Shown here: positions 27,715 to 30,792 of the stretch, piece by piece
Layout of the letters: each line of letters starts with the position of its first letter
How positions within the stretch are numbered: the stretch's first letter is position 1
Assembly (NCBI GenBank): GCA_937880175.1
Contig: CALFLO010000176.1
Coordinates: forward strand, 4,177 to 68,176
Direction: 5' to 3'
Length of the DNA stretch: 64,000 nucleotides
From: an uncultured Gluconobacter sp.
GTDB lineage: Bacteria; Pseudomonadota; Alphaproteobacteria; Acetobacterales; Acetobacteraceae
Position numbers and translations under genes: made by a program
The notes under the pieces: model-generated
Told to the model about the DNA's origin: nothing
The model's database searches: none
Seen by the model: only the letters and a program-made list of their open reading frames with translations

Positions 27715-30700
27715 TTGGAAGATCCCACTTTGGCCGATACGACAAACGTCAACGACGACCCTTCGACCGCTGGAAATAACGACACCATCCCTTACAACAG
27801 TAACGAAACCAGCTTCCATCAGCATGGCAATGTCTGGCGCTGGACTGGCCCCGCGACGGGCGGCGACTGGTCAGATCCGAGCAACTGGGCTCTGTACAGC
27901 CCCGAAGGTCATCCTGTTGACACGACGGGTGGTTCCTACAGTGGCGATGCCATTCCCCAGAGTGATCAGAATGCTGACGTCAATGTCGGCTATGTCGGCA
28001 ACACCACGCCAAACGTGGTTGTCTCGAATGCCATACTCTACAACCAGATCCGGAGCCTCAGCGTCTGGCAGAACAGCACGCTGAAGATCACGGCGCAGGG
28101 TGGAAACGGCAACGTCTTTGCAACGGCCGGCCTTGAGAATTACGGCACGGTCATCGTTGACACGCCGTCCAAAGTCGAACTCGGCGGCGTTAACGCAGGT
28201 GACGGCACCATCACGATCATGAACAATGACGGAAACGTCACGTTCGATGACTCCTACCTGAACAACGGCACGCTGAACCTGGTCAACGCGACCCTCGGGA
28301 CCGTTGCATCGCCGGTCAGCATTTCCGGTGGCACGATCAACCTTCAGCAGAACAGCACGCTGGTTGCGAACCTGTATGGCGCAGGTGGTACGGTCAATGT
28401 CGATCCGTCGAGCGTGAACACGCTGTATGTAAACGATCGCTATGACAACGACAGCGGCTCCGTTCAGAATACCGTCATCAACGGCGTGTCGAAAAACACC
28501 CATTTCGGTATTCTGGGTGGCTCCTCGCAGCCGACTTCTGCCACGTATGAAGCCAACAGCGACGGCTCCTACACGCTGAAGATCACGCTCGAGAACGGCC
28601 GCTCCATCACCTATCCGACGGTCAATGTCGCAGACGGCTTCAAGCCTGCCGCCCAGGCAACGATCGTTTCGGACGGCTCAACGGGCTGGCTGATCGAAGA
28701 TGCCGGTACCGCGACGGCTACGGCCTCCTATGCTACCAGCGATCTGCATCAGCAGCTTGCCGCAACGGCCGCAGCGGCAGCTGCTGCTGGTGGCGATGCC
28801 TCGCAGTACAATGCCAATGCCGTCAGCTATCACAATCACGATGCCACATGGCGCTGGACGGGTCCTGCCAGTGGAGGTGACTGGTACGATCCGAGCAACT
28901 GGACGCTCTATGACGGCCAGGGAAATGTCGTTGATACGTCCGGCAATTCCTTTGGCGGAAACGCCGTTCCGCAGAGCGAGCAGAATGCTGACGTCAACGT
29001 CGGCTATGTCGGCAGCACCACGCCGAGCATGGTTGTTGCCAACGCACCGTCCTACAACCAGCTCCGCAGCCTCAGCGTCTGGCAGAACAGCACGCTGAAC
29101 ATCACGGCGCAGGGCAACGGCAATTACAGTGGCTACGTCTTTGCTACAGCCGGTTTTGAGAACGACGGCACAATCCTGATCAATACCCCGTCCAAGGTCG
29201 AACTTGGCGGCATCACGATGAACCGTGATGACGGCACGATCACGATCATGGGCAACAACAACAACGTCGTGTTCGATGGAAACAGCGTCAACAACGGCGG
29301 TACCATCAACCTGCTCGACTCCACGCTGGGTGCTCCGACGACGCCGATCTCTGTCAATGGCGGTACGGTCAACCTCGAACAGGGCAGCAGCCTGTACCTG
29401 TTCCCGAGCGAGACCATCGGAACCATCAACGTTGATCCTTCGACGGTGAACACGGTCTATGTCGAAGCCAACGGCTACCTGCACAACAACTCGGCCAACA
29501 CCCAGAACTTCACGATCAACGGCGTGTCCGCCAATACGCATTTCGGGATCTCCGGTGTGTCTTCCGCTCCGACGGCTGCCACCTACACCCCGAATGACGA
29601 TGGTTCCTACACCTTGACGATCACTCTGGCTGATGGCCGTCTGCTGACCTATGGCGACATCCACACGGCCGACGGCTTCACGCCGGCTGCCACGGCGTCC
29701 ATCGTTCAGGATGGCAACAATGGCTGGGTTATCGAAGATAATGGCATCACGACCTGCTTCCTTGCCGGCAGCATGATCCGCACGCCGGAAGGCGATGTGG
29801 CCGTTGAGACCCTGCGTCTGGGTAGCACGGTTGTGGCTTTCGTGAACGGAGAAGCCGTGGAGCGGACCGTAACCTGGGCCGGCCGTGCCCACATGCTCGT
29901 CAAGGCTGGTCTGGCCGATGCCGAAGCAGGTTATCCGGTCCGCATCCTGAAGGACGCACTGGCTGAGGGCGTGCCTTACAAGGACATGCTGGTCACCTCG
30001 GAACACTGTCTGTTCCTGAACGGTGGTTTCGTCCCGGCCCGTATGCTCGTGAACGGTCGTTCCGTAATCTATGACCGCAGCCTGCAGTCCTATGATTACT
30101 TCCATGTGGAAACGAAAGAGCACTCGGTCCTCATGGCTGATGGCATGCTGACGGAAAGCTATCTCGACACCGGCAACCGTCATGCTTTCCGCCAGAGCGG
30201 CTCTGTTGTGTCGCTCGGTGGCCATGCACGGACCTGGAACGATGATGCAGCAGCTCCGCTGACTGTCAGCCGCGATGTGGTCGAGCCGATCTTCCGTGAG
30301 ATCGAAGCCCGCGCCATGGAAGCCGGTTTTGAAAACGCCATCGAGGCTTCGGTCCTGACCGAAGACTCCGGTCTGCACCTCGTCACCAGCACAGGCCAGA
30401 CCATCCATCAGGTCCGGACGGCCAATGGCCGCGCGATGTTCATGATCCCGTCTGACGTGACTGGTGTCCGCATCGTGTCCCGCACGTCCCGTCCGAGCGA
30501 GACGGTCGGACCGTTCGTGGATGACCGTCGCCAGCTCGGGGTTCTGGTGGGTGAAATCACGCTGTTCGACTCTGGCAACACGATCAGCATCGATCAGCAT
30601 CTGACCGATGCCGGTCTGGCTGGTTGGGATGTTCAGGACGATGCGGCTGCACGCTGGACCAACGGCAACGCTGAGCTGTCCCTGACCGCACGTCAGCCGA

Positions 30701-30792
30701 ACAGCCTTGGTATGCTGGCCATTCAGGTTCTGGCAGCAGGCCCTTACCTGCTGGTTTCCGAAGGTGAAGCCGAAACGGCTCACACCGCCTGA
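27715..30792 (+). CDS. Hint-domain mosaic protein: two passenger-like beta-helix units, a Hint autoprocessing module, and an unknown C-terminal domain
   Basis: 1025-aa ORF. Only TTG starts are available (27715, or 27730 with GGAAGA 7 nt upstream). There is no signal peptide. It has an internal 338-aa-period duplication and a Hint signature (CFLAGSMIRTPEGDVAVETL...SEHCLF...HSVLMADGMLTESY). A strong terminator follows. Confidence 0.85.
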   Translation: MEDPTLADTTNVNDDPSTAGNNDTIPYNSNETSFHQHGNVWRWTGPATGGDWSDPSNWALYSPEGHPVDTTGGSYSGDAIPQSDQNADVNVGYVGNTTPNVVVSNAILYNQIRSLSVWQNSTLKITAQGGNGNVFATAGLENYGTVIVDTPSKVELGGVNAGDGTITIMNNDGNVTFDDSYLNNGTLNLVNATLGTVASPVSISGGTINLQQNSTLVANLYGAGGTVNVDPSSVNTLYVNDRYDNDSGSVQNTVINGVSKNTHFGILGGSSQPTSATYEANSDGSYTLKITLENGRSITYPTVNVADGFKPAAQATIVSDGSTGWLIEDAGTATATASYATSDLHQQLAATAAAAAAAGGDASQYNANAVSYHNHDATWRWTGPASGGDWYDPSNWTLYDGQGNVVDTSGNSFGGNAVPQSEQNADVNVGYVGSTTPSMVVANAPSYNQLRSLSVWQNSTLNITAQGNGNYSGYVFATAGFENDGTILINTPSKVELGGITMNRDDGTITIMGNNNNVVFDGNSVNNGGTINLLDSTLGAPTTPISVNGGTVNLEQGSSLYLFPSETIGTINVDPSTVNTVYVEANGYLHNNSANTQNFTINGVSANTHFGISGVSSAPTAATYTPNDDGSYTLTITLADGRLLTYGDIHTADGFTPAATASIVQDGNNGWVIEDNGITTCFLAGSMIRTPEGDVAVETLRLGSTVVAFVNGEAVERTVTWAGRAHMLVKAGLADAEAGYPVRILKDALAEGVPYKDMLVTSEHCLFLNGGFVPARMLVNGRSVIYDRSLQSYDYFHVETKEHSVLMADGMLTESYLDTGNRHAFRQSGSVVSLGGHARTWNDDAAAPLTVSRDVVEPIFREIEARAMEAGFENAIEASVLTEDSGLHLVTSTGQTIHQVRTANGRAMFMIPSDVTGVRIVSRTSRPSETVGPFVDDRRQLGVLVGEITLFDSGNTISIDQHLTDAGLAGWDVQDDAAARWTNGNAELSLTARQPNSLGMLAIQVLAAGPYLLVSEGEAETAHTA
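27793..28704 (+). repeat. tandem coding repeat, unit 1 (residues 27-330 of the Hint protein)
   Basis: Collinear with unit 2. Shared nucleotide blocks include CAGAATGCTGACGTCAA.GTCGGCTATGTCGGCA and AGCCTCAGCGTCTGGCAGAACAGCACGCTGAA. Confidence 0.8.
28807..29745 (+). repeat. tandem coding repeat, unit 2 (residues 365-677)
   Basis: Offset from unit 1 by 1014 nt (338 aa). It is joined to unit 1 by an Ala-rich linker (QQLAATAAAAAAAGG). Confidence 0.8.
29755..30174 (+). other. Hint (hedgehog/intein-like, BIL-type) domain within the 1025-aa protein
   Basis: It starts at Cys681 (TGC 29755-29757), directly after unit 2. Motifs recalled for Hint_2: C-F-x-x-G-[ST]-x-I-x-T-x-x-G, SEHCLF, H-x-V-L-x-A-x-G-x-x-x-E-S. 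Confidence 0.7.

Follow-up and report, generated by a model that had tools for sequence, protein, structure and literature searches.

A Hint-domain protein of Gluconobacter with predicted adhesin-like beta-helix units belongs to a large paralogous family of the Acetobacteraceae

What becomes of a large adhesin-like protein that has neither a signal peptide nor a translocator barrel and that ends in a Hint domain followed by a further conserved domain? This question is raised by a 1025-codon open reading frame (ORF) on the forward strand, positions 27715 to 30792, of a 64,000-nucleotide stretch of DNA from an uncultured Gluconobacter sp. (contig CALFLO010000176.1), here called the window. Residue numbers follow this ORF as counted from TTG 27715 (1025 codons) and not from the true start at 27730; feature coordinates are collected in Table 1. 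It is already known that the gene is annotated as encoding a Hint-domain protein, and type-B bacterial intein-like (BIL) domains have been known in hypervariable proteins since 2003, when they were reportedly described by Amitai et al. The gene product is probably a 107-kDa precursor of an adhesin-like, extracytoplasmic protein, and the gene belongs to a large paralogous family that has expanded in the Acetobacteraceae. On balance, we lean toward an adhesin-like, probably heptosylated beta-helix protein that is cut by a type-B BIL domain from a Hint-tail module serving export, retention, and release.

The Pfam profile Hint_2 (PF13403) covers residues 680 to 819 with 110.9 bits (cutoff, 28.4; E value, 9e-32; profile positions 1 to 146 of 147), which bears out the original prediction of a Hint module whose first cysteine is encoded at 29755. 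The domain carries this Cys1 and the TxxH motif of block B, and it ends in GMLTESYLDTGN-RH with the C-terminal motif LTESYLDTGN, having neither a His-Asn block G nor a Cys, Ser, or Thr at the +1 position. By these motifs, it matches a type-B BIL domain. A marginal block-A profile match to a solved BIL domain (PDB accession no. 2lwy; E value, 0.003) was found when alignment A3 was compared with the PDB. Type-B BIL domains retain the intein motifs except block G, reside in hypervariable, nonconserved proteins, and cleave at their junctions in a manner uncoupled from splicing (PMC4031507, PMC7765530, PMC5874633). We compared 15 orthologues (alignment A1) and 45 diverse family members (alignment A4): C681, T761, and H764, on whose conservation the Hint assignment had been made to depend, are invariant in both sets, and E763 is invariant in the orthologues as well. 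Since its catalytic residues are so strictly conserved, the Hint domain is likely no relic. As a separate observation, a near-invariant asparagine, Asn821 (30175 to 30177), stands immediately after the Hint domain (TESYLDTGN, followed by R), and its cyclization could in principle free the C-terminal domain as a third fragment.

The C-terminal domain (the tail) had originally been set aside as 205 residues without a motif. It is instead a conserved domain family, with 1,364 representative clusters at an E value of ≤1e-3 and 332 at ≤1e-30 in an exhaustive profile-free search. In all of the best 145 representatives the tail forms the extreme C terminus, and in 141 of these the Hint domain lies directly before it. 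The tail is conserved at 40 to 60% identity across hundreds of paralogues, whereas the N-terminal regions of the best 145 representatives range from ~30 to 1400 amino acids and are mutually unrelated, only four of them containing the unit found in the window protein. More distant versions of the tail, with 27 to 28% identity, follow the Hint domain in two proteins with quite different N termini. Judged by sequence, the tail is an obligate Hint partner domain across the family, and Hint and tail together are a constant cassette carrying hypervariable N-terminal “passengers.” In this respect the window protein both resembles and departs from known type-B BIL proteins: the shared traits are Cys1 and TxxH, the missing block G, and the location at the end of hypervariable proteins, whereas the obligate position before a constant 206-residue beta-sandwich domain, the near confinement to Acetobacteraceae, and the linkage to genes of BAHT heptosyltransferases (see below) set the family apart.

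The AlphaFold2 model of the tail (pLDDT 80.6 overall and >90 in the beta-sandwich) starts with a low-confidence linker of ~30 residues, which is followed by a single helix, then by a beta-sandwich, and last by a short variable end. Residues invariant in the 45 diverse members include R866, S922, D937-R938-R939, W971, W981-T982, and Y1011. None of the fold matches of the tail in Foldseek searches of the PDB and BFVD was significant (best E values, 0.016 and 0.009; TM scores, ≤0.30), and their sole trend was toward generic sandwiches of the jelly-roll or carbohydrate-binding-module type.

In a scan of one genome per species, we confirmed at least 592 loci of this family; the best 80 all come from Acetobacteraceae, and several genomes carry at least four copies. 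A search of plasmids found the tail in 50 records, of which 49 belong to Acetobacteraceae, while the Hint domain alone also matches rhizobial and Paracoccus plasmids. Proteins of 250 to 350 amino acids, consisting of Hint and tail, were considered as a minimal form of the family and rejected, since in most of them the gene call is truncated and starts within the Hint domain. Family members also occur on plasmids. A 3.85-kb circular element of Acetobacter pasteurianus 386B (NC_021979.1, 3851 bp) holds only an IS6 transposase gene and the Hint gene, and on pGOX3 of G. oxydans 621H (2153-3898) the Hint gene is followed by a helix-turn-helix (HTH) regulator; older records name both of these plasmid Hint genes (L083 and L084, respectively) “outer membrane protein.” Tandem pairs of Hint-family genes, amounting to 14 extra ORFs, were seen across the 80 loci (L038, L041, L042, L044, L050, L053, L063, L076, and others), and IS5-type transposases adjoin Hint-family genes in 8 loci, which suggests frequent duplication and mobility of the family. 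Downstream of Hint paralogues of ~570 to 810 amino acids, on the same strand, an XRE-type HTH ORF of ~190 to 210 amino acids was found in 11 of the 80 loci.

The closest relatives of the window protein are Gluconobacter proteins with 72 to 86% identity, followed by Acetobacter proteins with 53 to 58% and by Kozakia and other Acetobacter proteins with 42 to 45%. Where the source gives a name, they are mostly called “Hint domain-containing protein,” the name that NCBI also uses for the gene; a search with the whole protein against the PDB and NCBIfam gave no matches. The full architecture is kept across the orthologues, in which the motifs AAAPL, GPFxDDRRxLGV, and WTxGxA are invariant and AAGPY is near-invariant. 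Rates of evolution in this orthologous line differ little between regions, with the Hint domain the slowest, and the N-terminal units are therefore under purifying selection there.

The N-terminal two-thirds of the ORF consist of a tandem duplication, as had been proposed from the letters alone: residues 23 to 334 and 361 to 680 are 61% identical over 321 positions (E value, 6e-129), and the second unit ends at Thr680, the -1 residue of the predicted scissile bond. AlphaFold2, given 24 unit sequences, confidently models unit 1 as all-beta (pLDDT 87.9, pTM 0.88). Its only high-probability Foldseek matches are the A-regions of Awp1 and Awp3b from Candida glabrata (PDB accession no. 7o9p and 7o9q; probability 0.98 to 1.0, TM score 0.44, E value ~1e-2, ~300 aligned columns), which combine a right-handed beta-helix with a beta-sandwich (PMC8746771). 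Far weaker matches were obtained to EspC and Ag43 (E values, 0.3 to 0.6), to RTX proteases and beta-rolls, and to a beta-helical antifreeze protein. The modeled unit and the A-regions are alike in that a parallel beta-helix is capped by a small C-terminal beta-sandwich within ~300 residues; they differ in sequence (14 to 16% identity, TM score 0.44, and no Pfam link to the window unit), and the Awp proteins, but not the window protein, are glycosylphosphatidylinositol-anchored fungal wall proteins with a different biogenesis. These models support the view that the N-terminal units are adhesin-like beta-helix units. The beta-rich, adhesin-like character originally ascribed to them thus agrees with the all-beta model and its best fold match, while the more specific label “PATR-type” is not supported, as the protein matched neither PATR nor any other repeat family in searches of Pfam and NCBIfam. 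A Pfam match to Y_Y_Y at residues 620 to 636 (E value, 0.0035, below threshold) was taken for a chance resemblance of the DGSYTLTITL strand and discarded.

The unit is modular. It precedes the Hint domain as a single copy in proteins P0024, P0117, and P0176, and it occurs without Hint and tail in three further proteins, of which P0031 and P0032 hold two units and a Ser/Thr/Ala-rich tail and P0230 holds one unit and a His/Ser/Gly-rich tail. Being found in proteins that lack Hint and tail, the unit is therefore an independent module. When a profile of the unit was used for a further search, just three proteins came up that had not been seen before, and they brought no new partner domain.

If the protein is a surface protein, how might it leave the cytoplasm? 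Neither a signal peptide-like nor a transmembrane segment is present in the protein, whose highest 19-residue hydropathy, 1.6, lies inside the C-terminal domain. The orthologues agree with this: none has an N-terminal extension with a signal peptide, the finding that would have overturned the original view, and all begin at the same Met-Ala-Asp. Likewise, a hydrophobic N-terminal segment is absent in 137 of 140 family representatives. A type V barrel is missing, too, as originally stated, since the protein has no match to the Pfam Autotransporter family and its C-terminal 206 residues are modeled as a helix and a small beta-sandwich and not as a 12-strand beta-barrel. At the same time, the N-terminal regions of the family have a median isoelectric point of 4.2, 78% of them are free of cysteine, and 48% of their residues are Ser, Thr, Gly, or Asn; many show AIDA-like “...SSGGxAxxTxVxSGG...” repeats. 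The window protein itself has an isoelectric point of ~4 and no cysteine before C681. These traits fit exported surface proteins that would travel unfolded.

The last strand of the tail, AAGPY, is followed by a variable end (30748 to 30789 in the window) that is of constrained length in the family, with a median of 14 amino acids, and whose last residue is Ala (59%), Gly (18%), or Ser (8%) in, taken together, 85% of 124 members. Such short, Ala/Gly/Ser-ending C termini resemble a C-terminal sorting signal, in a way that is compatible with type I secretion but not specific for it. A route of the type I kind with a C-terminal signal is, by elimination, the most plausible export path. Genes of type I secretion systems can be unlinked from the gene of their substrate, so a missing linkage leaves room for this route. 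An alphaproteobacterial precedent for a BIL domain inside an RTX-type exoprotein exists in Ruegeria pomeroyi YP_168868 (PMC2953401), which is likewise an acidic exoprotein without a signal peptide; it differs in that its BIL domain ends in His-Asn and lies near the N terminus and in that it has RTX repeats, which the window protein lacks.

A candidate for a modifying enzyme is encoded 11.7 kb upstream on the same strand. The protein encoded at 14556 to 15971 matches TibC_1st (E value, 1.6e-24) and, over residues 60 to 461, the TibC structure (PDB accession no. 4RAP; E value, 1.8e-119), and the four iron-finger cysteines of TibC all align in it (PMC4358343). BAHT enzymes heptosylate Ser and Thr residues of beta-helix passengers in the cytoplasm (PMC8151025) and recognize a beta-helix structural motif, and their known substrates are all exported adhesins (PMC4358343). 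No autotransporter gene lies near the TibC-like gene, which is flanked by an amidohydrolase gene and a gene for a DUF6056 membrane protein. When we searched 82 related loci with this protein, homologues were found in 8, always on the same strand as the Hint gene and in several cases directly beside it (Table 1; gaps measured between maximal ORFs). For a single-copy gene in a 3-Mb genome, we estimate the chance of lying within 10 kb of a given point at ~0.7%, which over 82 loci predicts less than one case. At least three unrelated sequence types are represented among the passengers beside TibC-like genes, and the Hint gene concerned in A. pomorum encodes a 1025-residue two-unit homologue of the window protein (P0018). 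This suggests that BAHT enzymes serve the present, non-autotransporter family, and it makes the window protein a plausible substrate at the family level. The early guess that the TibC-like enzyme had its missing substrate here is thus strengthened for the family by the adjacency in L039, L049, L050, and L078, but not for this very gene, given the housekeeping genes that lie between the two. Compared with AIDA-I and TibA and their enzymes AAH and TibC, the window protein shares a Ser/Thr-rich, beta-helix passenger-like region and, within its family, a TibC homologue nearby or adjacent; it lacks the Sec signal peptide, the C-terminal beta-barrel, and any Pfam autotransporter or PATR match, and in place of the barrel-associated cleavage of those proteins its release would, by analogy, be brought about by Hint chemistry.

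Taken as a sequence of events, the reading that we lean toward would run as follows. The beta-helix units would probably be O-heptosylated in the cytoplasm by the TibC-type enzyme. Cys681 would undergo an N-to-S acyl shift at the Thr680-Cys681 bond, and the thioester would then be resolved by water or another nucleophile, detaching a two-unit fragment of ~70 kDa from a Hint-tail fragment of ~37 kDa; no splicing would take place, so that the Hint domain would remain joined to the tail. Most likely, the constant Hint-tail module would serve to export, retain, and release the N-terminal passenger, which is the variable part, and would thus be analogous in function, though unrelated in descent, to a type V translocator.

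Several observations weigh against this account. Cleavage, export, and glycosylation of the protein are predictions from its sequence. The likeness of the unit fold to known adhesins is modest (TM score, 0.44; E value, ~1e-2), and the tail, whose function the account has to supply, matched nothing in Pfam, NCBIfam, or the PDB, even with a profile from alignment A3. Concerning export, the window protein has no RTX repeats (GGxGxD), a search for sorting domains and type I target domains in NCBIfam gave 0 matches, and the window holds no gene for an ABC transporter, membrane fusion protein, TolC, or another secretion component at a distance of up to ~12 kb from the ORF. Nor did clustering of the neighbors of 80 related loci, a survey that had been suggested from the outset, bring up any recurrent secretion gene: what recurs are genes for TonB-dependent receptors, chiefly in the orthologous loci, and for IS5 transposases and generic ABC ATPases, as well as the XRE-type HTH ORF and tandem Hint genes. 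As for glycosylation, the unrelated housekeeping genes uvrA, ssb, and gyrA separate the TibC-like gene from the ORF, the two do not form one operon, and near the Kozakia homologue no TibC-like gene was seen out to 10 kb.

It is tempting to ask whether the thioester might have a fate other than hydrolysis. Hedgehog Hint chemistry allows the payload to be transferred to a nucleophile (PMC2362128), and if the thioester at Thr680-Cys681 were offered a nucleophile other than water by the tail, such as an envelope glycan, lipopolysaccharide, or a lipid, the outcome would be a beta-helix fragment covalently esterified to the envelope or matrix and not simply released. The order of parts is indeed that of the Hedgehog Hog domain, namely, an N-terminal payload, a Hint domain starting with Cys, and a conserved C-terminal region, and the one constant domain that follows the Hint domain in 141 of 145 representatives recalls the Hedgehog Hint domain before its sterol or adduct recognition region (PMC2362128). 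The tail is moreover modeled as a beta-sandwich in which Trp, Arg, and Asp residues are invariant, its weak fold neighbors are carbohydrate-binding or jelly-roll proteins, and the family has no other anchoring device. However, the tail, a 200-residue beta-sandwich on a flexible linker, shows no sequence or structural similarity to the Hedgehog recognition regions and is not homologous to them, and all of its fold matches are nonsignificant (best E value, 0.016; TM score below 0.3). The junction between Hint and tail is a low-confidence linker of ~30 residues, a Pfam search of the protein found Hint_2 only and no match to the Hog Hint profile, and the type-B BIL domains studied so far simply cleave (PMC4031507). 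The window protein, moreover, is bacterial and lacks a signal peptide; the transfer would be purely hypothetical, and we consider it unlikely. Given a somewhat better, though still small, chance is a broader proposal, in which Hint_2 and tail make up an unrecognized biogenesis device that would carry BAHT-heptosylated, signal-less adhesins out of the cell and then release them or transfer them in the Hedgehog style.

Alternatively, the beta-helix units could be the stalk of a polymorphic toxin or bacteriocin, from which the Hint domain would free the C-terminal domain as a toxin directed at competitors, in line with the analogy to cargo release that was drawn originally. In polymorphic toxins a HINT peptidase does stand directly before the C-terminal toxin, after a long beta-rich N-terminal region (PMC3482391), and the present family is mobile, as seen from the small plasmids, the IS6 circle of 3.85 kb, and the neighboring IS5 transposases. 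Yet the polarity of variation is the reverse of that in polymorphic toxins: here it is the C-terminal domain that stays constant (40 to 60% identity across hundreds of paralogues) and the N terminus that varies. The gene is followed by a terminator and then by a convergent TonB-dependent receptor gene, with no immunity-like ORF downstream, and the sole recurrent downstream ORF elsewhere is the HTH regulator (11 of 80 loci). Several copies per genome and a tail without resemblance to any catalytic fold in Foldseek also speak against a toxin, which leaves this explanation very improbable and the analogy unsupported. Hardly more can be said for a protein that stays inside the cell, its Hint domain being either a relic or a device acting on the cytoplasmic protein itself, for example in a regulated self-cleavage. 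No export signal is recognizable and no secretion genes are linked, and BAHT enzymes, too, act in the cytoplasm (PMC8151025). Against a relic stands the strict conservation of the Hint catalytic residues, while an acidic, Cys-free, Gly/Asn/Ser/Thr-rich composition together with an adhesin-like fold and hypervariable N termini is typical of surface or secreted proteins; the known BAHT substrates, moreover, are exported adhesins without exception (PMC4358343). We regard an intracellular role as distinctly unlikely.

Acetic acid bacteria are much used in industry and also live as symbionts in insect guts. To our knowledge, almost nothing is known of their surface-protein biology, and we know of BAHT enzymes only as modifiers of autotransporters in pathogens. 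In a literature search we found no functional study of Acetobacteraceae Hint proteins and no description of the constant tail as an obligate Hint partner, of how large the family is and of its confinement to Acetobacteraceae, of the uniform absence of export signals, or of the genetic linkage to BAHT heptosyltransferases. With its hundreds of loci, several per genome and often on plasmids or beside insertion sequence elements, the family probably contributes heavily to surface variation in these bacteria, yet it has no known export or anchoring signal. If the Hint-tail module were to mediate export, release, or attachment, this would be a new mode of protein display on Gram-negative cells, a bacterial counterpart to Hedgehog-type processing, and a functional replacement for the type V barrel; BAHT enzymes would then serve a class of substrates other than autotransporters, and the linkage to TibC-type genes would extend these enzymes beyond their present range.

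Table 1. Positions of features in the window and of TibC-like and HTH genes beside related Hint loci
Feature	Position	Strand	Basis or remark
TibC/AAH-type heptosyltransferase (BAHT), candidate modifying enzyme	14556..15971	+	11.7 kb upstream, same strand
Conserved upstream box GTTTGCATATTATTAACTT, 19 nt, candidate promoter/operator	27628..27646	+	~85 nt upstream of start
Shine-Dalgarno-like GGAAGA	27717..27722	+	7 nt before TTG 27730; GGAAGA or GGACGA in orthologues
Coding sequence from true start, 1020 aa plus stop	27730..30792	+	Orthologue ATG; database gene call P0001
Unit 1, residues 36-335: WRWTGPxxGGDWxDPxNW cap, predicted beta-helix, C-terminal beta-sandwich	27820..28719	+	AlphaFold2 model, Foldseek
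Ala-rich inter-unit linker, residues 336-372, conserved Y339, H345, G359	28720..28830	+	Alignment A1
Unit 2, residues 373-680, tandem duplicate of unit 1	28831..29754	+	61% identity, E value 6e-129
Hint_2/type-B bacterial intein-like domain, residues 681-819	29755..30171	+	PF13403
Cys681 codon, Hint Cys1 nucleophile	29755..29757	+	Invariant in 15 orthologues and 45 diverse members
Block B T761-S-E-H764 (TxxH)	29995..30006	+	T761, H764 invariant in 15 orthologues and 45 diverse members
C-terminal domain, residues 820-1025 (206 aa)	30172..30789	+	AlphaFold2 model, family search
D936-D937-R938-R939 signature (GPFVDDRRxLGV) of C-terminal domain	30520..30531	+	D937, R938, R939 invariant in 45 members
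Intrinsic terminator, UUCG loop, U8 tail	30811..30849	+	Folding
L050, G. oxydans NL71: TibC-like, then Hint gene	3926-7637		Gap 4 bp
L049, Acidomonas methanolica: TibC-like, then Hint gene	41-4427		Gap 34 bp
L039, Gluconacetobacter liquefaciens: TibC-like, then Hint gene	7456-11038		Gap 196 bp
L078, A. pomorum: Hint gene, then TibC-like	7979-12572		Gap 217 bp
L051, Gluconobacter sp. Gdi: Hint gene, then TibC-like	1900-5475		~1 kb
L079, uncultured Acetobacter sp. (metagenome-assembled genome): TibC fragment abuts Hint gene start	2511-5542		Adjacent
L001, Acetobacter (two-unit homologue P0016): TibC-like upstream of Hint gene			~9 kb
L055, A. thailandicus: TibC-like downstream of Hint gene			~9 kb
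HTH ORF in L009, L017, L021, L022, L032, L043, L045, L048, L050, L060, L066			Directly downstream of Hint gene

The surroundings of the gene largely agree with what had been read from the letters. The frame opens after TAA 27577, its first possible starts are TTG 27715 and TTG 27730, with no start codon upstream of the former in the open frame as read from the sequence, the ribosome-binding box is in place, and the first internal Met, residue 169, lies more than 160 codons in, all as described. Of the two TTG codons left open as starts, the second prevails. All five orthologous Gluconobacter loci that we compared have an ATG exactly at the position of TTG 27730 and keep the box as GGAAGA or GGACGA, so that the true start is TTG 27730 and the protein has 1020 amino acids. 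This settles the question that had been raised about the N terminus, and the database gene call P0001, also of 1020 amino acids, is 100% identical to the window protein. A longer form, as in the 1064-residue calls P0002 and P0005, was rejected on account of the in-frame TAA 27577 in the window; it is also contradicted by the ATG or TTG at 27730 and the conserved ribosome-binding site in all orthologues.

The predicted strong UUCG-loop terminator was missed by a simple consensus scan and was confirmed by folding: GCCUCAUCCC-UUCG-GGGGUGGGGC-U8 has a free energy of -26.2 kcal/mol (z score, -4.7), and 0 of 200 shuffled sequences fold as well. Beyond it, on the minus strand and convergent with the ORF, lies the TonB-dependent receptor gene (31018 to 33666); on the other side, gyrA (24609 to 27452) is likewise on the minus strand. 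The window holds no second copy of the protein. Upstream of the start, the box GTTTGCATATTATTAACTT is kept in five orthologous Gluconobacter loci, while the surrounding intergenic sequence diverges. Finally, the window has a TTG at 27730 to 27732, where the five orthologues have an ATG, and the initiation of translation may be lower here.

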